From NCBI GenBank assembly GCA_010093605.1, contig MU004183.1, positions 1,488,001-1,552,000 of the forward strand: a stretch of DNA of 64,000 bases. Direction: 5' to 3'. This DNA is from Lophium mytilinum. Lineage: Eukaryota. The position numbers and the translations under genes were made by a program. Every line of letters begins with the position of its first letter. Within the stretch, counting starts at the first letter, position 1. Below, in pieces: positions 8,155 to 55,380 of the stretch. The notes beneath the pieces were generated by a model. It was not told where the DNA came from. It saw only the letters and a list, made by a program, of their open reading frames with translations, and searched no databases.

Positions 8155-8935
8155 GTTGGTTGTGTGCGTGTGCAGGGCGCGGATGGAGGAGGTGAGGATT
8201 GGGGTGTGAGGGAAGAGAGGTTTGGCTCGCCGCTCCATGTGAGAGGAGAGGACCTCTTATGGTGCTAAAGATGAAGGAAATGGAAGATCGAACGTGCTTG
8301 ATATAGATCATCTGACGTCTTGCACCCGACTCTAAATTCTGATAGGATCATGGAGGCTTTCTTAGGACGCCTTAGACAAGAAAATAACACGCATGGGTAC
8401 TATATAATCCAGAGTGGATATGATAGTTGCGGATGAACTTAATTGTGTGAGGTTTCTCAATCCTTTGACGATGTGGGGACTCCTCCAGGATGCTATAGGA
8501 CTTCGTAGCCGAATGCGAAGTTTCACGCGGTCATGTCAGTAGTAGGGATCTCGCTCACAGTAACATAATGTCAAGAGAAGCAATAGAATCGGTCTAGTAG
8601 CTACACGAATCCAACCCCTTGTTGGCACGCTTGCTATGATTAAAGTGCCCAAAACCTTACCCAATCTGCCCTATCATCGACCAGAGAGGCTCTAGTATAG
8701 CAGTCAATGAGACCGCTTTGTGACGTCAGAGAGGAAATCAGACAGGAGAGTGACAGGGTAAAGAACAAGAAAGAAAAACCATAATGTAGAAGTGACACAC
8801 AGGGAAACAAAGAGAAGGTGAATACAGGAAGGAGTGACAAAAAGAGGAAATAGAATGCAACGGGGTAGTAAAGTCCGCACCAAACATAGCCGTGTCGTGT
8901 GTATCCGAACACCCACTGTCCTCCATGCTCCTGCC

Positions 8936-10080
8936 TCAGCGATTGTCTCTCGGCTTGTCTTCACTGGTATCTTCAATGACCTCCTCGGGAAGGTCATGCT
9001 CCACGCCCTGCAGCTGTTTCATCTTCGCCCACATGGCCTTCACAACGCTAGGCTTCACACGCCTAAGCCCCTGGCCTCTGAGCAGGCTTCCCCGGTTATC
9101 CTCTGGATCCCTATAACTCCACACCACCATTGCATTCTTCGGAATCGCCTGCACAAAGCTACGCAGAAAAGCTTTGAATATCCAGTGGACGTCTTCCCAC
9201 TTCTGCATGGCGTCATCACCCTCATAATGATTCGGGCCTCGGGTGAGGGATATAGTGAGGTGACGGAGTGAATGCATTTCGCCAAAGAGCGCCATCCAAT
9301 GCACCATCATGTCGACATCAGCTGTAGTGGCCAGAACAAGTTCTAGATGCATGCTAGTCATCAGGGAATAGTCCCAGCCAAAGGGTGAGATAAAGGCGGC
9401 GGGTCGGTTGATTTGCTCCCAGTTGCGGCGAGAAATTGTGATCGCGAAGGTATTCCGAGAGTAGAGGATGTGCTTTGCCTCTTGGGAAATCTGCTTGTTC
9501 GTTGCGAGGATAGCGACGTAGGCGAGTGGCTCGATTTTGAAAGCCTTCGGGATGACGGCTTTACCGCCCATGTGGATACGTTTGATGGAGTCGCGGTCTC
9601 GGCGCATCTTCCGATATTCGCGGATTTCCTGGTTGAGGAATATCCTAAGAGCCTTGAAGGTTGCGCTACTATCACGCTGGTTGACTAAGAGGAGCCTGCA
9701 AGCGTAGTTAGCCATGCCGTTTTGGGTTCCATAGAGTATGGGAAACCTACTCGTAGATCGAATTCCGGAGCTCAGCGGGCAGGTCAAGGAACCGGAACTT
9801 GCCCTTGGGCTTCCAGGCTAGACGGCGCCTATATGGGTTAGCGGATGGTATATTAGAAGGCGGCGTTGGGTGCTTACTTCTTCTTCTTCGGACGCTCATC
9901 GTCGGCATCCGTAAAGTCGTCATCGCTGTCAAGCAAAGCACTCATGTCACCACGGGCTTGACGCTCAGGGTTGCGCCGGATTTTAGCGACTAGAGCAGAG
10001 CAGGTGGGCTGGATATGCGGACGCGGCGTGCAAGCGGGCCTAGGGAGCGACTTTCGCGCGGTCTTCTTGCCACGCGCCAT
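8936..10080 (-). CDS. F-box-like protein with a histone H3-like N-terminus (2 introns)
   Basis: Three ORF pieces join in frame via GTAAGC...GCTAAC...TAG and GTAGGT...GCTAAC...CAG introns: MARGKKTARKS...KKKKRRLAWKPKGKFRFLDLPAELRNSIYELLL... There is also an IL.TNKQI..EA..ILY..N.F motif, common in fungal F-box-like proteins. Confidence 0.8.
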
Positions 10081-10855
10081 AGTAAGCCTTTCTGATTTGT
10101 GTGTGTTATGATGGGTAGGAGTACGGGCTTCCACGTTGACGACGGCGATCGGGATGGGAGGGTCGCCAAAAGGGTCTTACAGCGCTGCGTTATGAACGCT
10201 TGTTGATGTTGATGCTGTAAGGCTGGGAGTGGAAGCGTCGCCGCTGACGACAACAGCAGGTCTTTGAGCAACGCCAGACAGCTGCGGCGGGCGAATGCTG
10301 TGGAGACGGCGCGCTTTCGAAGGATATGGGGAGCTTGGAAGCCTTCGGACAGGGCTGGTGGATGCTGTTAGGTCTTGCCAACCCGTCAACAAAGATGTGG
10401 TGGTTGGTGGGTGAGTTGAAGGACTGCGGAAGTTGGCTGTCGGTAAATAGTAGCTTGAACGCGTCGCTACGCGAGAGCACGTGGCGACTTAACATCTCAC
10501 TTTCGGGGCGAAGTAAGGCCGGGTAGGCTTGGGCATTATCACGTTGTTGTTATGTTGCAGAAGCGAGGTTCGATGGGGTTTGTGAATGGCTGTGAGGAAC
10601 TAAGAAAAGAGCACGGCCGGGATGTCTGAGGAATGGTATAGATGTGAAGAAAGAAACAGTCGAAGTACCTCAGCGAGTATACTGATTGTCAAGCCTGTGC
10701 AACCACATCGCCCTCTGGCTTCTGACGGCATGTTGAGCCACTCTTGACGGTGGCATGATAGTATACTGCGATCAGAGAGATTGACAACACTAACTCCTGA
10801 TGCGCCAAATATGTGTATTGAGGTTGAATTGAAGAGAAGAAAACACCTAGCCAGC

Positions 10856-11983
10856 CTACCCATCATCCCCAACAACCTTAGCATGCCGAAAGTACTTCAT
10901 ACCTACCCAGGCCACGACCACCCACACCCAGGCCATCACGGCCGTCAGCACCATCAAGGCGGGATAGTACCCAACAATTGGCAGCGTAGGATCGTCCTCT
11001 AGCTCTGGCGGTGCATACGGCGTCTCACCAACATCCCATGCCCAGCTCCATACCCCCAGGCACGACCCCATGCCTACGACGAAGACAATCCACGTGACAA
11101 CCAACACCACCCAGCCCCACCATTCCGTCTCGCTGTAGTCCCATTCCTCTTCTAGTACCATGGCGGAGGGTGTATGTACGATGGGTAGCGAGGAGCCGTG
11201 GCTGCCTTTGTTGGAGCGGCGGCGCTGGAGAGAGGAGGATTGGTTAGGGGGTTGGAGTTGCACGCCGAGGTAGGAGGAGTTGTTTCCAGCTAGCGCGGGA
11301 CGAGAGAATGAGAGGCCTTCGTCGTCGTCGGTCGTAGATGCGTATGGGCCGACTGGGCTTGTAAGGGGCGATGCGAGGGCGCGAGGAGTAGGATGGCCGT
11401 CCTGGGAGAGATTGCTGTCGGTGCTCGTAGCGCTCGTGGTGAGGGAGAGCTTCTGCAACGGTGTCCAGCCGCTGTCTGACGAAGAGGCGTGAGATGGATT
11501 TTCGTAGCTGAAGCGGCGTGGGGTTGTTTCTTCGTCGGGAGACGGTGGGCTCATGTCATCGCGGAAGTCGACGGCGTGCTTGGAGGGGGATTTCTTCTGG
11601 TCCAAGATGGAGTTTCGACGCTCGCGCAGCTTTCCCGTTCCCAGTATCGCTGTTTTCCGCAACGACCCCTTACGCTTTCGCCCCTTATTTTGCCGCATCG
11701 CATTCGCCATAGCTGATGTTTTCTTGGGGCCTTCGTCGTTCTTTTCGGGGTCGGAAGGGTCGTCCTCTCGTTTCGGCGGTGGCATCGGAGGTAGCTCCTC
11801 GGTGGACGCACGTAAGAACAGTGGAAGCTTTCCCAAAATACTCCCAGAGAGACTTCTCTTATGGGACTTAGGGGCCGCGTCGTTGGTTTTAGCAGTTGTT
11901 TTGGCAGCTGTCGTTACGTTGCTCCGCGCGTCAGGAGCAACGCCATCGCCGCCGTTTGCTTTTGCGGCATGTCCATTTTCCAT
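10856..11983 (-). CDS. PIG-Y/Eri1-domain membrane protein with a long disordered N-terminus
   Basis: The C-terminus has two TM helices, WGWVVLVVTWIVFV...YYPAL...AWVWVVVAWVGMKYFRH, resembling the PIG-Y/Eri1 subunit of GPI-GnT. Confidence 0.7.
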   Translation of the reverse strand: MENGHAAKANGGDGVAPDARSNVTTAAKTTAKTNDAAPKSHKRSLSGSILGKLPLFLRASTEELPPMPPPKREDDPSDPEKNDEGPKKTSAMANAMRQNKGRKRKGSLRKTAILGTGKLRERRNSILDQKKSPSKHAVDFRDDMSPPSPDEETTPRRFSYENPSHASSSDSGWTPLQKLSLTTSATSTDSNLSQDGHPTPRALASPLTSPVGPYASTTDDDEGLSFSRPALAGNNSSYLGVQLQPPNQSSSLQRRRSNKGSHGSSLPIVHTPSAMVLEEEWDYSETEWWGWVVLVVTWIVFVVGMGSCLGVWSWAWDVGETPYAPPELEDDPTLPIVGYYPALMVLTAVMAWVWVVVAWVGMKYFRHAKVVGDDG

Positions 11984-32400: not shown

Positions 32401-34135
32401 CTGGTTTCGTCATAGCCTCGGTGCTGGCGAGCATGGCGTCGAGTTCTGGGACAAGGGCGTGTCATCGCTTTCGCTCTCTGCTGATGCTCGCCTCTCGGTC
32501 CAACCAGGCGCGCGATCCAATGCGGGATCGCCCATTCCCAATCTCGCCCACAACGGCAGCCTGTGCTCGCGACGAAGTGCTGCAACACGGGCGCCGGTGT
32601 GAGGCCTTTCGCTAGGTCAGGGGCCTCGAAGGGATCAGAGAGACCAGAGGCAGACGCCCATCCAGAGCGTTGTTGCGGCGCCGTGCAACGCTAGCCGGAC
32701 CGCTCGCAAAAGTGCATCGAGCCGCGTGCTGCTGCCTCTCCAGCTGCCGTGGCCGGGCTGACGCTGCTTGAGACCCAGCGAGCCAGTCAAGACAATCAAC
32801 AAGGAGCTGATTACGGCGGACGGCAGCGGCAAGCGTGACAGGACGAAAGAGATGGACCCAGGGCTGTGGAGCGCAGAGCAACGCGTCGACCGAGCCTCGT
32901 TCTGCGCAGCGTTGGTGGAGCCGTGAGCAGCCGCTGTGTTGCTCCCTTGAGCCCTCGCCGTGGAGTCGCCGGTCCCGAGCGCCTAACCGGTGTGGGCGTA
33001 GGGCGATGCATGCAGCTCGCTGGGTTTGTCGGGGGCTTCTGCTGCGCGGAGTGCGTCGAGCCCCAGCCGTGTGTCACTGAACGAGTGTCAAAGCAACCGG
33101 CCGCAGGCAGCATCGGCGCCACTGGACAAGCATCCGATGAGGCACCTGAAGGGACTCTCGACGTCGGAGAGCGCCTGGAGGGCATGACGATGCGAGGAAC
33201 GATCACTGATGGTGACGGAAAAATCGTGCTCACAGCTGATCGGCTTGGGCTGGAAAGGCCAGCCGGGCATCGGCATCTGTCTGTGCACCACCTTGTCCGC
33301 CCGGCTTGCTTCTCTCTCTCGCTGCCCGCTGCTTGCTGGCCTCGTCTTGTTCCGCTTCGCTGATGATGGCTGCATGCATGCTGCTGGGGCGGCTTGGTGA
33401 GCTCTGGTGGATGGCATGACACGGCGCTACAGAGGAGCCCCGGCCAGGGCGGCACCTAGAGGCGGGACCACGTCCTGCCCCAAGCTGTCAGCCCGCCGGT
33501 GTGCTCGGGGTGTGGTGAGGGAGTGCGCGTTGGGTGATGCAGGAGGGCCATGGATCACGATTCCTGCGCCAGGGCTGCCGTGAGTGGACGGCCCAAGCCC
33601 CCTCTTGCCTCCCACCGGGCGTTTTGTGGGCCCACTGTTTCTGCATGGCGGCGATGCACGCGATGCAAAACCCGCTGCTCTCGTCATAGTGCGAGCCTAG
33701 CGCGCTCCTTCCTATTTGTAGAGGGCTTGTCTCGCCCTGCAACGGCCCACTCCACGACCCAAGCCTATGCACCACTCATCACCCAGCCCCAGCCCACCCC
33801 GGCCACCACGCAGACTACATACATCATACTCACAGGCCTCTCCCAATCCACCACATCGACCCTACTCTTCACCACCCGCACTCCTTCACTACTTGTCTGT
33901 TTGCCCACGCTCCCTCAGCCTCCTCGTCGCCTCTACCTCCAGTCCTCTACCTCCTCTCGCCCTTTGCCACCTCGACTGCAGCCACTGTCCACCTCCAGCT
34001 GCTCTCTATCTCTTTAATACGTTGCTGTTCTCTTTTTCTTGAGCCGCGCACAGGATCCCTTTGGACCCCCCGGACTCTCTCTTCCTTGCGGCCTTAGCTG
34101 GATCGTGAGGACCCCCTCTCTCCAACCACCACAGC

Positions 34136-35506
34136 ATGTTGCCCACCCCGCCCGCATCGCCCACCCTCAATGGATTCTGCGCGCCGGAAGAACGTCTTGG
34201 CCAAATCCTGGCCGGTCGTCTGCAACTGACGGGCATCCTTGGAGTTGGCGCCTATGGAGTGGTGTACACAGCCGTGGACATCCACACAAACATTCCCTAC
34301 GCCGTCAAGGCGCTCAACAAGCTCGGCCTGGAGCCCCGCCAGCGGAAATTCCAGCAGCGCGAGATCCAGCTCCACCACCAGGCATCCGCCCATCCCAATG
34401 TGGTTTCCTTGGTAAAGATCATGGACTCTCCCGATTGCACGTATGTGGTCATTGAGTACTGCCCAGAGGGTGATCTGTTTTCCAACATCACCGAGCGAGG
34501 CAAGTATATTGGGAATGATGCCCTTGCCAAGCGGGCCTTTCTCCAGATCTTGGATGCCGTGGAGTACTGCCATTCCATTGGAATCTACCACCGGGACCTG
34601 AAGCCTGAGAATATACTCGTCACCGACCAAGGTATGACTGTCAAACTTGCCGATTTTGGACTTGCCACTGCCGACCACTTCACCTCGGATTTCGGATGCG
34701 GTTCGACTTTCTACATGTCACCAGGTAATTTTCCTCGTCTTCAGTCATTTCATCACAGCCCGAGTCAGAAACTAACCTCCCCGCCAGAATGCCAGACTTC
34801 CTCTCCCAAGGCCTACTCTTGCTACGCATCTGCTCCCAATGATGTCTGGTCCCTAGGAGTTATTCTGGTCAATCTTACCTGTGGGCGCAACCCCTGGAAG
34901 CGTGCCTCGTTCGAGGATACCACTTTCCGGGCCTACATGAAGGATCCCAAGTTTCTGAGGTCCATTCTTCCCTTGTCTGCTGAGCTGGATTCCGTACTCA
35001 AGCGTATCTTTGAGTACAACCCTGCCAAGCGGATCACCATTCCTGAGCTCAGACAATTGATTCTGAACTGCCCGAGGTTCACAACGAGGTCCGCAGCCCC
35101 CGCGCCACTCCCCTCGCCTCCCTTCAAGCCAGTGGACTATTCCAGAGATGCTGCCTTCAACGGAATCTACCAGGCCCAGACTGCCCCACCAGTCATGCTT
35201 CCCGCACCACTGTATGCCCCATCCCACCTGGAGCTCCCATATACGCAACACTCAACATCCTCTGGAAGCTCTGATTCGGACAACGATTCTGTGTTCTCTT
35301 CCAGTTCCTCAGTCTCGTCTGCCTCGTCAACTTCCTCCTTTACCCACGTTCCTGCGGCTCCAAAAGGTGCTTCCCGCGGCATCCAATCCTCATATGTTTC
35401 CCCGCCACCCACCGCATGGTACAATCCATTCCTCCAGGCGGCCAACCTAGTGAAGCACGTCTCGTTCCAACCACCAATGATGGCCGCCCCAGTTCACGTA
35501 TATTAA
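34136..35506 (+). CDS. Ran1/Pat1 (Sks1/Vhs1)-like Ser/Thr protein kinase (intron 34725-34787)
   Basis: [33 protein letters not shown]...[39 protein letters not shown]; Ser-rich tail. Confidence 0.93.
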
Positions 35507-38500
35507 CCGGACTTCCTGGATTTGGCCAAGCTATACGGACCATTCCTGAACGACGAAGTACGCTTCTTGCCACGATGTGTTTATATAGCCCCATTTTTTT
35601 TCCTTGTTCACAAAAGTCATGAAGAGATGAAAGCGTGTGTGGTTGTTGTCCCCTTTTCCCGCGACGGTGTTGGTGTGGTCTTTTTCATTCATCTGAGTCA
35701 AGGGCTCCAGGGTTGCGAAAACATAGATCTATCGGCGCATCCGGAATCCGTCGAGTGAGAAAGAGAACGATGTGCCCGGACTATACCCGGATGCCACCTA
35801 CTACCTGAAGAGGATACACTTTTACCTTCTTCCTGGATGGAGGATAGCCATGTTGAACGATTAGAAAACGTCCTCGGTTCTAGCGTGGTTCATCTCGGAT
35901 GGTTGTCTTATTACCGGTTTTCTTATTTACATTGGGAGGTTGTCAGTAAAGTCCAGCGTGCAAATGCCTAGATGGCGGTGGTGTTCTTCCTGCTTCTTGT
36001 TTCACGGAGTTGTCACCAAGCCGGGTTGTGGCTATAGGAGTGGAGTAAAGCTTGTGGTTCTTTTCGCATTTACATGGAGTTGAAGAGTACTGCCTACTTA
36101 ATGGTCTACCCACCACGGAGAGCATGGGAGGTCCTGCAGTGGAGATTTACGTTCATTCATGTCGTCATGACGACGGCCCTTCTTTTCCTTTCTCTCGAAA
36201 GATCTCGATACCAGAGCCACCTTGTTGGGCTCACTACTACGTTTTTTGTACGCTATATGCCTGGCTCGAAAGAGTTTGAGAAGCGAGGAGCGAGATGCTT
36301 GAGGATATGAATTAAAACACATACGTTTGTGACACGGCTGAGGTCGTGTCGCGCAAGCACACACACATGGACATCCTTTCTGATCTGCACAAATGCGTGA
36401 TTATTGCAAAGATACTATCCCACGTTCAAAACCACGGATTCGACTCACGTATCTTTCGTGATGCTCCACCAGGATACGATGTGGATACGTGCCTCCTGAA
36501 TATCCTATCCCCGGCGTCCCTCCGCTTTCGGAGTCGTCTCCACGCGCTACAGAAAGCACTTCTGCAGACCCTGGAAAGCCGGAGAGATTGCACTCCGCTG
36601 TGCTCTCCCACGATTGAGCTTCAGGTTAGCGAGCCCGCGAAGCGCACGTTCTGCCGGCCTACCTATACCAAGCTTGTCGAATCACCATCGGCGTTAGACT
36701 TTGACACCCGTCTCCATGAAGCCATTCCCAGCTCGGCCGCCCTACCTCACCTCCATCCATACAAGCGAGCATTGGGAGAGTCTGGATATGGATTCAGCCT
36801 AATGCCTAGTCATGCCACCTCTCTGACACCCATATGCGCCCAAAAGCAAACCAAAGCAACCACTCAGCTCCCGCGCCCCGCCGCCACCGCAGGCTGCGTT
36901 TGGCTGTTTGCTTTTCTTCTGCTCGGAGGAAGTGAGGCGTACTCGCTGTAGGTCAGATGACCCCCGAACCACCTCTCAGAAACTACTAGAACGCAGCGAT
37001 GCGATATGCGGGCTGCAGGCTGACCGGAAAGCAAGTCAGCGCAACGCAGCTCGCAGCCCCAGCCCCCGGTCAATAGCAAATCATCCACCCTCGACGCCAG
37101 CGCCTTCGCTTACCCGCCCGCCCGTCTCACTGCCTGCGCTGACCGGGCCTGGGCGAATGGTGGGGAGGTCTGAGATGTGAGAAAAACTTGCTTTTGGTGT
37201 CGTGGTTGGTGTTGAGGGGTTTTATTTTTTTCTTCTGAGACTGGCGACGGGTGTTGGGCGGCCAACCGGTCAGGGCTCCGCCCGCTGCGGCTGCGGCTGG
37301 GCGGGCTGGGCTGGAATGGGTGGTTGGGATTTGTGAGGCATATTGCTGTACCGAGAATTTGGCCGGGCGTCTGGTGAGTCTGAGATGCAGAGGTGCCAGC
37401 ACATGATGCCTGAGTGTTTTGGCGTGAGTGCTTGCATATTCACTCAGAGCTTGAATGGTGAAAATTGGATTTTGGGCAGAGGATAATTACGTCTGCTTGG
37501 GTAGGTCGGGATAGCGCGGCCCGGGGTGGGTAGGCTCGCAGATTTGTTGAAACCTCTCTATTGCTAGCCGTAACTTACGACCATTAGCGTGGCGCTAGCT
37601 TCCTTACTACCTCCTCCGCTGTCGCTTTATGTTCCTCATTCCATCAGACCACATTTAATAAACACTTCCTCATGGAGTGCGACAAAGGTCAATAACGAAG
37701 CGAACGATGCAACGTTCTCCTATCCCGTAGCCGCTCGCCGTCATGGAATATTGGATCTACAATAATCCTGGAAGTGCCACATACGCATTTCCCATGTGGC
37801 ACAGGCATGGATTGAGGCAGTGCCGCCGCCGATACGATGATGTGTGTGCATGGTGATCTATCTCTTCGTGCTTCTGCCTAGGTTCGAGGGTTGGGAAGCC
37901 TGGTCGGTGGGTGGAGAGGGTGTCGGGGGATTGGCCGGATAGAGTGTCATATCCGAGTGACTACGCATTATGTGTTGCTGGGGTTGAGATATTGGATGGG
38001 CGGGAGTTCGTGGGTGTGTGGCTGTGATGGTTTGTTAGGTGTGCCTAGCGGTTCACGGGGGAGATTGGTATGAGGCGCAGGCGGCAGCGATATTGGATGG
38101 ATGAGGGGGGATATTCACATGTGAGTAAACCTCTCTCTCGGCGAAGATACTTCGTAGTACTGCTCTTAAGTCCCGTGATGACCGTTTAGGGTAACCGGAG
38201 AGTTGCGAGATCAGTGTCCTTCTTGGGTATAGTCTTCACGTGACCTGATGAGACATGAGGCTCTTGTTTTGCTGTTGCTCTACAAAAAACTCAAATAAGC
38301 AAGGATATGCTGTTTGCCGCTTCACATAACTGCCATTTCCGTCAATTACCATCATCTCACCATCGGAAGTTTCAACCCCCTTCCCTGTTGACTACGCACC
38401 ACTCTCACTCCGTAGAATCCTCACACACGCACTACCTACTAGCGCAAAAGACGCTCAAAATGTTCAATCCCCCGCCCCATCCCACTTGCAATGATGATTG

Positions 38501-38574: not shown

Positions 38575-41500
38575 CTATAATACCGACGACGCCACTTCCT
38601 CCTTATATGCGGTGAGCAGCCTCGTAATAGCTCCATGTCCGTATCGCTTTGCCAAATTCATTGCTATCTCATACTGTGTGCTACAAGGTAATCCCCATTC
38701 AGGGTCAAGCCCCTCGTCTGATGGCACCTCGTCCGAATTACAATATGTATCTTTGACGCTAGAAATGTGGCCTCCTGAGTCATTATTTCCATAATCGTCC
38801 TTGTGAAATCGTGGGAGGTCTAAAGCGGCGCCGGCATTTAGTAGAAGCTGTACCATATCTATTCGACCGTATTCAGAAGCTAGTTCCAGTGCCGTCCTGG
38901 TTCTATGGAAACGGTAGTATCTCACAGGCAGATGCGTGTCGTATAATCTCTCCCACTCATAGCCGGAAGACACAGCGTCGACCGTAGTGGTGGCGCCGGC
39001 GCTGAGAAGTATATTGGCAATTTCAATGTACCCCTCGGTAGCAGCTAGATGCAATGCACTAAGGCCTCGAAGGCCCAGGGGGGCTTCAACGTTTGCTCCA
39101 GAAGCGAGGAGAAACTGGACCATCTCAGAGTTGCCTCTGCGAACAGCGCACTGCAGAGCGCTCAGATCAGATTCTATCCGGTTACCTTCCTCCGTATGAT
39201 TATTTTCCGGAGCCGTTTCTTCATAGGACTTTGAACATGGTGCGCCATTCAAATCGGCATGATAGTGTAGCAGGAGTTGTACAATGTCCATTCTTGAACG
39301 TCGAGCCGCGCGTGCAGCTGCAGAAATACCTGGGCCGGATTCGAAGGGTATGTTTGGCCTGGCACCAAGTTCAAGCAGCAGATGAACGACAGAAATGTGG
39401 CCCATTTCGGAGGCAAGCTCTAGGGGAGTCCCAACGATGTCCTCATTGTAACGATACCGGAGGTTAAGATTGCATCCAGCACGAACCAGCGCTCGAATAA
39501 TATTAGATTCGGAACCAATAACGGCAGCTTCAAGGATAGCTGGATTGTAGAGATCGGCTTTGTCGTAGGCATGTCTGCTTGTTGATATTGCTTGGAAGAG
39601 AATCTCTAACATGGGGATATTTCCCTTCTCCACGGCAATCGCAAGCGCTCCCCGATCGATTGGGGAGGCACCCCAATGAAGCAGCTTCTTCGTCAGCGTT
39701 GTACTGCTCGCACGAACTGCTTCTGCCAATGGCGTGCGGGGGCCAGGCTCATTGACATGGGCCCCGTATTCCAACAACAAATTAACCACTTGACAGTCCT
39801 TGAATGATATCGCCTTTGTCAAAGGTGTATGCCCGTTGATCGAGATGTCAATGTCTGTACCTCTGTCCAAAAGCCAATGGATAAGCCAGAGGATTTTCAT
39901 CTCCATGGCTTGAAACAAAGCCCGGCCGTCAATGTTTGCGCCAGAGTTGATGACTTCTTGAACAATATTATCTTTCCCTGTTCGGATTGCAGCCTCTAGT
40001 GGCGTAGAGGCATTGCTACGATGCGTCCCGTTGATATCAGCTCCGAGAGAAAGCAGGTATCGGAACATGCTCATATCGTCGTTCTTGATAGCTTTCGTGA
40101 GAGCGATCTCACCAGAGCAATCCTCGGCATTGACATTGGCACCTTCTTCAAGGAGCGTCTCAATCAGCATGGTGTTTCCTCCTGCTACTGCTACTGGTAG
40201 GACGCCCCGGGCATTTTGATCGGAGTCGAAGGGCGCTCCAGCCTGCCGTAGGAGGTCGAACATAATCTTGTCGTTCATTTCAATGGCCATTTCAAGCGCA
40301 GAGGAAAAAGTTTCGTGAAGAGAGTTCGCGTCTGCGCCATTGGCTAGAAGGTTCTGGACGACCTGATAGTCCTGGCATTCGACCGCAACTTCTAAAGGAA
40401 GCTCCCGAAGCCAAGTCCTCTGATTCACATCGGCCCCGGCATATAAAAGGAGACGAGTAATATCAAAGTTTCCCTTACGAATAGAGGATATCAAGAGTGA
40501 GTTGTTCTTGAATTTTGCTCCGGCTTCGAGTAACAAGCACACTAGGTCGATATGCTCCAAACTCACTGCACGATGAAATGCAAAATTCAAGGCTGAGGAA
40601 TGCTGTTTGCATTTACTTAAAGAATTCAGGAGGATAAGCTCCGTAAGCTTAACGTTACGCTTGCTCACCGGGATCTCTAAAATTCTGTGGTCGATTTCCG
40701 TTACTGACGATAGTAGAATCCTAACCAATTTCTCGTCTTCGCTTTCCAGAGCGGGGCTCAACATTGCCTCGGCAAAAGCTTCAACTGTAGGCTCTCTGGT
40801 GCTAAGAAGGGTTTCGAGATGTCGGAGATTCCCTGGGCGACGGCACCAATCGAGTGCTAGCTGCTCAAAAGCCTTCCTAGGGCCGCTGTGGCTGTCGCCT
40901 AGTTTGTTGCATAGAACGTATATGGCAAGTTTGAGAAGGTGAACCGAGTCCGACTTCGTAAGGCTGCGTGACAATCCTACCGGTGTGAGAACATCACCAA
41001 TGTCGTAGTCTGCCGGCGGTATGAATGCTGCGACGCGACCGTAATCGCCGGAGTGTCCGAGAAGACTTTTTATGTCGAACTCAGAGCCTCTGGGTACGTT
41101 AATGGTCAAATCGATGCCGGTATGCCCGAAATCAGCACTTTTAGGTGACATGGCTGAGGAGCCATCCGTTCGGGGAGACGCTAGTTGGGATCAGTATTTC
41201 AAGAGAAAGACCGATCTTAAGGCATAACGCACTAACCTTGTCGGAAAAAACGTGTCTGAAATCTTATACAAGGCAAAGGCCAGATGCACTCAAGAAGGAA
41301 TACAAGGTGATCGAAAGGAGGTGGCGTGCATACGAGCATTCCTTCTGGTGTTCTTGGTGAACTTGCTGACCCAAAGTCAGAGAACCATAATCTCAGCTGG
41401 GTTGCCTTCGTCTGGAGAAAGACTTGCCTGACTGGTATCTTTCGACTGTGGTGACAAAATTACACGGGCGAGCAATCTCTTTGAGGACCTTTTTCCTTGA

Positions 41501-53559: not shown

Positions 53560-54270
53560 GTTGGAGTATTTGATAAGAAGTTCGTGTTGTGATGTAGAGT
53601 TCTTCACTTAGCTGGGAGAGTGGCGCCCGTTTTAACTGCGGGTATCTGCAGCAGGCTGACGTGTAATTTGGTATTTTGTGCCACGTGTTGCAGCAGTCAG
53701 CAGAGGCGCAGGCGGTGCTGTCTTGCTGGATGACGATGCTTCCAAGCGGCCTGACTCTCGTGGTGAAGGCAGGAGGTGAGTGAACTAACTCCAAATAACA
53801 ACGATTTCGGAATCAAACGGATTATGACACGAAATCGACATTTGCCATTGCCGCCGTCATGTTGCTAGTCGATTCTAGAATCAAGGCTGTGTCACGTTCA
53901 GTAAAGACGTGGATACGGTCTTGCCACTTACGCCCCCCAACACCAACCCCTGAACATCAGCATCTGAACACCAGCCCCTGATGCACAGTGTTCATTTGAA
54001 CTTCCGACGTACTTCGTTACTATATGAAGGACAAGAAGACACAAGCCGAATGACAGCTTAATGCCATGTCCTCGTTCGGCGCCAGTGCTCCGATGAGGGG
54101 ACACCTGAACACAAGGATACTTAGTACTCCCCTTGAGTGACCATGTGCTCGCGAAGAGCAATTTGTGAATCGTCGTGGACCCCGAGGGGCTTTATATATC
54201 CAACACTTACACTAAATATGGAGAGCGGTCGCCCCTAGAGGTGATGCTGAGAACTGAAATATCTTTCAGT

Positions 54271-55380
54271 ATGGACAGCCCACCCAAATCTCCCGCAATT
54301 GGCCATCCCCCTCCGGCCATCCAAATCACAGCCCCAGAACGTTCCCAGGACACCAAGCAGCAACAACCATCTTCAAGGGCACTACCACAGTATCGCCGTC
54401 GGGCGTTCCACACGCGGATGTTCCAGGAGCCGGAGTATGCGCTCAAGCAGCAGAATCCTGCGAGATATCTTGGATACCGTGTATTCTCCAGATGGGTTGC
54501 CTCGGATCAGACCTACTTCATTGTCCGGAAATTTCCAACGCTGAACGTTCGAGTTGCTCTTGTTTTACAGGACAGAATTGTGCAATTGGAAGACGAGTTA
54601 AATAAGTTAGATCAGGATTGGAGTAATGAATATTTCCAATATGAAGACCCCAAAAGGCCAGACGCAGACCCGAATCTGATACATAACGGGACATTTCGAG
54701 AAGATGAGAGCACCCACAGGGTTGAGCTGATCGATAAGATCGCTGACGCATTGGAGCGTTATAGTGAGTAAAGCGAGCACTCTTCCTATTCAAGTGATAC
54801 TAGTCCGCGATAGCTGACAGATGGCATAGACCGCTTCGTGAACTCGTACGCCCAACTAGCACGGCAACCCCCCGCCCGAAAAGACGACATAGACAACGTG
54901 GCGGCCTGGTTTGAAAACCACATCGGGGCAATCGCCATACCAGAGCGAGACTACATCACCCACTTAGAAGAGCTCATCGCCGTACAGCCAAAAGACCGCT
55001 CATGGTTCCGCGGTATCCTGGAAATGACTCGCTTTCTCAAGATGCCATGGATGCGGCACTTCTTTACCCGCATTCCGCTCGACAACAAAATCATCTACGA
55101 TGGTCGCGGATATTGGCAGAACGACCGCAATGTGGAGAAGTTTTCGTCTTGGGTAATCGCAGTGGTCGGACTAGGCATGCTAGTGGGTCCGATATGGATA
55201 CTCGCATTTGTTGCGGACTCTGCGAAGCGGCTAGGTGTGATTACGGGATTCATCGCGCTGTTCTTCATTCTTGTAGCGGTGGCAACAACGGCAAAAGTCT
55301 CGGAAGCGCTGGCATCAGCGGCGGCTTATTCGGCTGTGTTGATGGTGTTCATGCAGATAGGGGCGATCAAGGCTCATTAG
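54271..55380 (+). CDS. DUF6594 domain membrane protein (intron 54764-54829)
   Basis: GYRVFSRWVASD..YFIVRKF.TLNVRV.L.LQD.I..LE.EL..LD, three C-terminal TM helices, and terminal AAAYSAVLMVF. Confidence 0.85.

Follow-up and report, generated by a model that had tools for sequence, protein, structure and literature searches.

A tip resembling the N-terminus of histone H3 on a DUF7730 family protein of Lophium mytilinum, and the extent to which the likeness is conserved

Short stretches resembling the tail of histone H3 occur in proteins that are not histones, and internal mimics of the ARK[ST] type include the automethylation site of G9a and K126 of LIG1, as well as the ARSK of influenza NS1. F-box motifs, with which such a stretch is here combined, bind Skp1. 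We analysed a 64,000-nucleotide stretch of the genome of the filamentous ascomycete Lophium mytilinum (contig MU004183.1, positions 1,488,001 to 1,552,000; hereafter the window), in which a minus-strand gene of three exons encodes a protein of 346 residues, P0001. Residues 2-11 of this protein (ARGKKTARKS) are identical to the first ten residues of H3 at 8/10 positions, in register right after the initiator methionine. With confidence that is about evenly balanced, we read this tip as a basic tail, young and fast-evolving, on a DUF7730/F-box-like protein that is probably nuclear, the likeness to H3 not being demonstrably selected.

The closest described system is the class of H3 N-terminal mimicry proteins (H3TMs) of Chen et al. 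2021 (PMC8166343). The class is defined there by a second residue that permits removal of the initiator methionine (A, G, S, C, T, P or V), followed by equivalents of R2 and K4 of H3 (M-Z-R-x-K), and 48 such N-termini were counted among 20,996 human proteins. The H3TMs include VRK1, BCL11A/B, SALL1-4, FOG1/2, TSHZ, MEF2, and PCLAF/PAF15. All seven peptides tested bound effector domains of H3 trimethylated at lysine 4 (H3K4me3) in vitro, while unmethylated ones bound NuRD; three peptides were methylated at K4 in vitro, and the authors were unable to demonstrate K4me3 on H3TMs in vivo.

P0001 and its orthologue from Mytilinidion resinicola (P0002) both begin M-A-R-G-K, the N-terminus of P0001 being predicted from the first in-frame ATG, and Ala2, common to both, permits the removal of methionine that the original prediction had assumed. 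By its predicted sequence, the tip thus has the minimal pattern of an H3TM; our reading of it disfavours a decoy of the K9/ARKS type. Compared with the H3TMs of Chen et al., P0001 is alike in being a non-histone protein that starts M-Z-R-x-K, in its disordered N-terminus, and in its nuclear setting, the last of these predicted for P0001. It is unlike them in that the match extends to 8/10 of H3 residues 1-10, beyond the minimum of three rules, that the host is a filamentous ascomycete, and that the tip is carried by an F-box-like DUF7730 protein rather than by a transcription factor or kinase; it also occurs in two species only. With internal ARK[ST] mimics the Lophium protein shares A-R-K-S (residues 8-11), but in such mimics the motif has an internal or C-terminal position, with a K9-like lysine at its centre, whereas the half of the motif that is conserved in P0001 is the extreme N-terminus. 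ARK[ST] itself is not conserved, as ARKS in Lophium corresponds to ARYQ in its only orthologue. In a literature search, no publication was found that connects an F-box protein with histone mimicry; among the papers listed as containing both terms, neither term appeared in a title or abstract.

The match itself was found as originally predicted, on the minus strand at 10080..10048, where the start codon (10080..10078) is followed by ten codons for ARGKKTARKS; the slightly longer segment 10036..10080 codes for residues 1-15, MARGKKTARKSLPRP. The tip departs from H3 at two positions, T3, where it has G, and Q5, where it has K, and the likeness ends abruptly past residue 10. Under a null model of independent and identically distributed residues, the probability of at least 8/10 identities in a fixed register is 9e-9 with family-wide composition, 2e-8 with the composition of family N-termini, and 6e-8 with that of the protein's own tail. 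Starts with MAR occur in 4/71 of the other family members that begin with methionine, and a semi-empirical estimate that allows for them gives 1.3e-7 to 1.7e-7. When the six-frame translation of the window (127,942 decamers) was compared with H3, 309 decamers matched at 4 positions, 28 at 5, one at 6, none at 7, and one, the tip, at 8, the counts dropping about ten-fold with each added match. Within a single window or proteome, chance falls far short of explaining the tip match, and an occasional chance case is still to be expected across many millions of proteins. The single decamer at 6/10, AEEKQTAKRS at 36893-36922 on the minus strand, is the only other H3-like decamer of the window; it is not N-terminal and is taken as chance.

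P0001 is not itself a histone. Pfam searches at E values up to 1 returned only DUF7730, 2EXR, and F-box-like_2 and thus revealed no histone fold or H3 variant, and a phmmer search with the exon 1 peptide against the sequences of the PDB gave no matches at E values up to 10.

Conservation was assessed against P0002 (350 residues, 73% identical), the sole close orthologue in the collections searched. The M. resinicola protein starts MARGKQTARYQVGRLPNK, with a tip of ARGKQTAR that is followed by YQ in place of KS and, directly after, by an insertion or deletion of four residues. Of the H3 equivalents that the original prediction had listed (R2, K4, T6, R8, K9, and S10), the first four are therefore kept in the orthologue and the last two are Y and Q there; the equivalent of T3 is Gly in both species. 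Identity between the two proteins amounts to 7/10 over the tip (residues 2-11), 7/8 over residues 2-9, 1/5 over residues 10-14, which is the lowest value anywhere in the N-terminus, 46/64 over the disordered tail (residues 12-75), and 197/271 over the domain (residues 76-346). The tip had been expected to be conserved above the flanking disorder; by this alignment, at 7/10 versus 46/64 and 197/271, it is no better conserved than its surroundings, and it is absent in more distant homologues. The block PACTPRPHIQPT (residues 15-26; 10003-10038, minus strand), located in the region modelled as disordered, is identical in 12/12 positions and exceeds the tip in this respect; it may be a short linear motif with a Thr-Pro site.

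Outside the orthologue pair, the tip was not encountered. Searched exhaustively with HMMER, 1.84 billion representatives yielded 76 family proteins at E values up to 1e-3, and an M-Z-R-x-K start is lacking in all 75 other family representatives, the H3-like extension being confined to the two orthologues among 78 sequences. The next homologue, P0004 (365 residues, 38% identical), has an unrelated start and can be aligned only beyond it, from residue 28. When residues 1-50 served as the query, just the two orthologues were retrieved, out of 4 candidates; a word-indexed search with exon 3 retrieved the same 2 proteins, one with P0004 found no relative besides P0004 itself, and a scan of metagenome contigs with the alignment of the two orthologues gave 422 pattern stretches, none of which was confirmed by tblastn. 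In several paralogues (P0010, P0015, P0018, P0021, and others) the very N-terminus is M-x-[LI]-RRNP-x-R-K-C-K, and in an alignment of eight members the same RRNP-type motif is internal in P0001 (AKIRRNPERQARGD, residues 33-45; 9946-9984, minus strand). Because these paralogues start at a motif that is internal in P0001, the tip lies on a lineage-restricted extension of about 32 residues. The RRNP-type basic motif looks like the ancestral head of the subfamily. One distant member, P0072 (304 residues), starts MARPRGTAR, with the same MAR-xxx-TAR spacing and Arg at the place of H3 K4; this could be a coincidence or what is left of an older motif at the N-terminus of some family members.

The reading of the tip as a young basic tail fits a layout in which an N-terminus of 75 disordered residues, with an acidic patch and a cluster of K and R resembling a nuclear localization signal (NLS), would precede a folded part. 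The folded part, in turn, would consist of an F-box-like helix (LPAELRNSIYELL), an insertion of about 50 residues, a second F-box-like half, and short alpha/beta repeats resembling leucine-rich repeats (LRRs). By this layout P0001 is possibly a substrate adaptor of a ubiquitin ligase of the Skp1-cullin-F-box (SCF) type, and the basic tail might, for example, form part of nuclear targeting or make non-specific contact with nucleic acids or acidic partners. Several points weigh against this reading. For a proteome of about 1e4 proteins, the chance probabilities of 9e-9 to 1.7e-7 per protein amount to about 1e-4 to 2e-3, and the probable nuclear location places the tail where readers of H3 are. 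The equivalents of A1, R2, K4, T6, A7, and R8 are common to both species, and residue 5 is Q in M. resinicola, as in H3; this is the only tip position at which Lophium departs from H3 and the two species from each other, and the Q there hints at a common ancestor that was even closer to H3. Finally, selection on ten residues can hardly be detected or excluded from two species that are 73% identical.

The carrier is a member of the fungal DUF7730/2EXR family. P0001 matches Pfam DUF7730 (PF24864) over residues 81-252 with 30.3 bits against a cut-off of 27, and P0002 falls just under this cut-off at 26.1 bits. Matches below the cut-off in P0001 are 2EXR (PF20150; 16.5 bits versus 24.8) and F-box-like_2 (PF13013; 12.7 bits versus 21.6, E value 0.13), the latter scoring 13.3 bits in P0002; all three matches in P0001 begin in exon 2. 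No F-box model of Pfam reaches its cut-off, and none besides F-box-like_2 appears even at E values up to 1. The closest clusters of the ESM Atlas are from Ascomycota and carry DUF7730, 2EXR, and, in one cluster, F-box-like_2 (76% of members). P0001 resembles the proteins of this family in its DUF7730 match and in these Ascomycota clusters, and differs from them in its H3-like extension. It is named a hypothetical protein at source and a DUF7730 domain-containing protein in UniRef, where the title of the orthologue reads 'F-box domain-contain...'. A full-text literature search gave no match for DUF7730, and the literature on 2EXR, judged by titles and the openings of abstracts, showed no sign of this fungal family.

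An AlphaFold2 model built from 63 family sequences has a mean predicted local distance difference test score (pLDDT) of 79 and a predicted template modelling score (pTM) of 0.71. Residues 1-70 score about 50 and are modelled as disordered, and residues 80-330 mostly score 85-98. The modelled fold begins with a helix (residues 86-97), continues with a strand and a long helix (106-135), a loop, and helices at 154-174, and ends in four strand-helix units; the insertion of about 50 residues divides the F-box-like motif. Foldseek found nothing in the PDB at E values up to 1e-3, its weak rows mixing xylanases, MAX2, and TIR1, and a profile of 63 family members had no match among PDB sequences at E values up to 10. 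Structural alignment with VIA-align against 48,161 chains, in which a Z score below 8 possibly indicates just a common arrangement, was weak throughout (best Z 5.5), with LRR or F-box chains accounting for many of the weak rows. These include the LRR domains of NLRP2 (Z 5.5) and NLRP9 (Z 4.6), both weak, and six isolated F-box chains (9o04_G, 5ibk_E, 5k35_A, 1nex_B, 9cb3_A, and 1fs1_C) that match model residues of about 77-175 weakly, with Z 3.4-4.5, 40-47 aligned residues, and a root-mean-square deviation (rmsd) of 1.9-3.8.

The model may be compared with the F-box/LRR (FBXL-type) SCF adaptors FBXL3, MAX2/D3, TIR1, Skp2, and FBXL5, which share with P0001 an LPxEL...I..L helix followed by alpha/beta repeats. 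Regions comprising the F-box and the first repeats align with the model in MAX2 (9kkx_C) at Z 5.0 over 138 residues (rmsd 4.1), in FBXL3 (4i6j_B) at Z 4.6 over 135 residues (rmsd 4.4), and in TIR1 (2p1m_B) at Z 3.9, all of which are weak matches, and TIM-barrel enzymes reach a Z similar to those of MAX2 and TIR1. P0001 is unlike these adaptors in the insertion of about 50 residues within the motif, in F-box Pfam scores below the cut-off, and in having no sequence match in the PDB. An architecture of an F-box-like motif with short LRR-like repeats is plausible from the model. The F-box-like nature of the protein, which the original prediction had proposed, is a weak assignment: the F-box-like_2 score is 12.7 bits where 21.6 are required, and the F-box/LRR fold matches are weak, although UniRef gives the orthologue an F-box title.

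A nuclear location of P0001 is probable from the conserved K/R cluster and the acidic patch. The acidic patch DSDDDFTDADDE (residues 51-62; 9895..9930, minus strand) is partly kept in the orthologue as DSEDDIAAIDNE, and the cluster RPKKKKRR (residues 63-70), which resembles a classical NLS and is coded across intron 1 (9822..9894, minus strand), corresponds to RPKKKRR there. Both elements, together with FLDLPAELRNSIYE (residues 81-94), had been predicted to follow the tip, and all of them are present in the spliced product.

The P0001 gene is real, transcribed, and correctly spliced from three exons, as a transcript contig from one public sequencing run (X1) shows. The RNA label of this run is a guess; the run contains 0.87 of the sampled words. 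Its single contig of 3133 nucleotides matches the window with 0 differing letters and omits exactly the two predicted introns, 9829..9877 and 9696..9750, whose CT..AC ends on the plus strand are GT..AG on the strand of the gene. Since both predicted introns are missing exactly and have such ends, the contig derives from spliced RNA. Exon 1 is thereby joined to the exon bearing FLDLPAELRNSIY, as had been proposed. A script applied to the window spliced a coding sequence of 1041 nucleotides that translates letter for letter to the deposited 346-residue protein.

All parts of the gene lie on the minus strand. Exon 1 (9878..10080) encodes residues 1-67 and two bases of codon 68 and holds the H3-like tip, the invariant PACTPRPHIQPT block, the RRNPERQARGD motif, and the acidic patch; the K-rich NLS-like stretch also begins in this exon. 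Intron 1 (9829..9877) has 49 nucleotides of the form GTAAGC...CTAAC...TAG. Exon 2 (9751..9828) completes the NLS-like stretch (KRR) and encodes WKPKGKFRFLDLPAELRNSIY(E), the first helix of the F-box-like motif, and intron 2 (9696..9750) has 55 nucleotides of the form GTAGGT...CTAAC...CAG. Exon 3 (8936..9695) encodes residues 94-346 and the stop codon, comprising the insertion with the long helix, the second half of the F-box-like motif (9452..9529, about residues 150-175), and the alpha/beta repeat domain.

ATG 10080 is the first in-frame ATG downstream of a stop located 33 codons upstream, and the open frame that it begins is 68 codons long, its stop overlapping the GTAAGC splice donor. Between 10081 and 10494, the 414 nucleotides upstream of this start, the minus strand contains no ATG in any frame. 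A start at ATG 9923 was rejected, as the removal of the 49-nucleotide intron 1 in the only transcript contig puts it out of frame with exon 2. Within the window the contig covers 8646..10500 in three pieces, ending at 8646, and has 1382 further nucleotides upstream of 10500. It continues unbroken through 10081-10500 and beyond into the region of an upstream gene on the same strand, the open reading frame 10856..11983, whose C-terminus matches PIG-Y (PF15159, 85 bits). Such a run-on may stem from read-through or overlapping transcripts or from a merge in the assembly, and five upstream ATGs (10495-10756) would sit in so long a leader. Because the contig is merged with the upstream gene, it does not fix the transcription start.

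The foremost rival explanation, which we hold to be possible though tentative, is that the tip is a functional mimic of H3 residues 1-8, or of their R2 and K4, in the manner of an H3TM. After removal of methionine, the free A-R-G-K tip would be bound by readers of the unmodified or K4-methylated H3 N-terminus, such as PHD fingers, WD40 proteins of the WDR5/Swd3 type, or chaperones of the RbAp48/Msi1 type, and might be methylated by Set1; these readers would be coupled to an SCF-like ligase, or the adaptor itself would be regulated. All three sequence rules hold in both species, with a closeness to H3 (8/10 and 7/10) far above the minimal rule and a very low chance probability, but the tip occurs in two sister species only, is conserved no more than its surroundings, and is missing from P0004 and the other 74 family representatives. 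The sister species has the H3 residue Q at position 5, and T3 is replaced by Gly in both. A tail modelled as disordered, as the H3 tail is, and the presence of an NLS-like cluster agree with such a role, as does the in vitro behaviour of the human peptides, of which all seven tested bound H3K4me3 effector domains and three were methylated at K4 (PMC8166343); against this, the minimal motif is not rare, at 48 of 20,996 human proteins, and Chen et al. obtained no evidence of K4me3 on H3TMs in vivo. In its most specific form, which we consider unlikely, P0001 would be a nuclear SCF-type adaptor whose H3-like docking tip, A-R-G-K-x-T-A-R, enters the H3K4/R2 pockets of PHD, WD40, and RbAp48-type proteins. 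Set1-dependent methylation of K4 might then act as a switch, and the partners would be ubiquitinated or titrated off chromatin.

It is less probable still that the likeness is due to descent, the first 30 or so nucleotides of exon 1 being the relic of a captured 5' piece of a duplicated H3 gene. The low chance probability, the abrupt end of the likeness after residue 10, and the 9/10 positions at which the two species combined match H3 would all agree with such a capture, but no H3 gene lies within the window, and 30 nucleotides are too short for a strong test at the level of DNA.

The original prediction had also envisaged a decoy centred on K9, methylated by an enzyme of the Clr4/DIM-5 type, bound by chromodomains of the HP1 type, and switched by phosphorylation of S10. 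Residues 8-11 of the Lophium protein do read ARKS, but the orthologue has ARYQ beside the insertion or deletion at the same place, with residues 10-14 identical at 1/5 positions, and because the K9/S10 half of the motif is lost there, such a decoy is unsupported and very improbable.

Least credible of all is an artefact of the gene model, in which translation would begin at a later methionine (M46, or ATG 9923) and there would be no H3-like N-terminus. In its favour, the transcription start is not fixed by a contig that runs upstream into the neighbouring gene, M46 is conserved in the orthologue, and the open reading frame starting at ATG 9923 continues through intron 1 into exon 2 without a change of frame. 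Against it, the only transcript contig lacks intron 1, so that ATG 9923 is out of frame with exon 2, residues 1-45 are conserved at the 72% level with just one in-frame insertion or deletion between the species, and ATG 10080, flanked by A at -3 and G at +4, is preceded by 414 nucleotides free of any other ATG.

Among the neighbouring genes of the window there was no candidate partner for P0001. The other open reading frames, none of them related to chromatin, include an ankyrin-repeat protein (38575-41190, minus strand; an open frame of 871 residues), a protein kinase (34109-35506, plus strand), and a DUF6594 protein (54169-54771, plus strand).

If the tip is functional, N-terminal mimicry of H3 would reach beyond the transcription factors and kinases of animals, into fungi and the ubiquitin system, and the tip's youth could show how an H3 mimic arises. 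Should it serve as a docking tip on an SCF-type adaptor, it would be the first mimic of the H3 tail joined to a ubiquitin-ligase adaptor, and its recent birth would make its origin, possibly from a fragment of an H3 gene, traceable. If the tip is incidental, an in-register match to H3 of 8/10 can exist on a probably nuclear protein without excess conservation, and catalogues of histone mimics based on minimal motifs therefore need phylogenetic support. Either way, the uncharacterised DUF7730/2EXR family gains a gene model that is confirmed, together with a confident structural model whose predicted architecture is F-box plus repeats.

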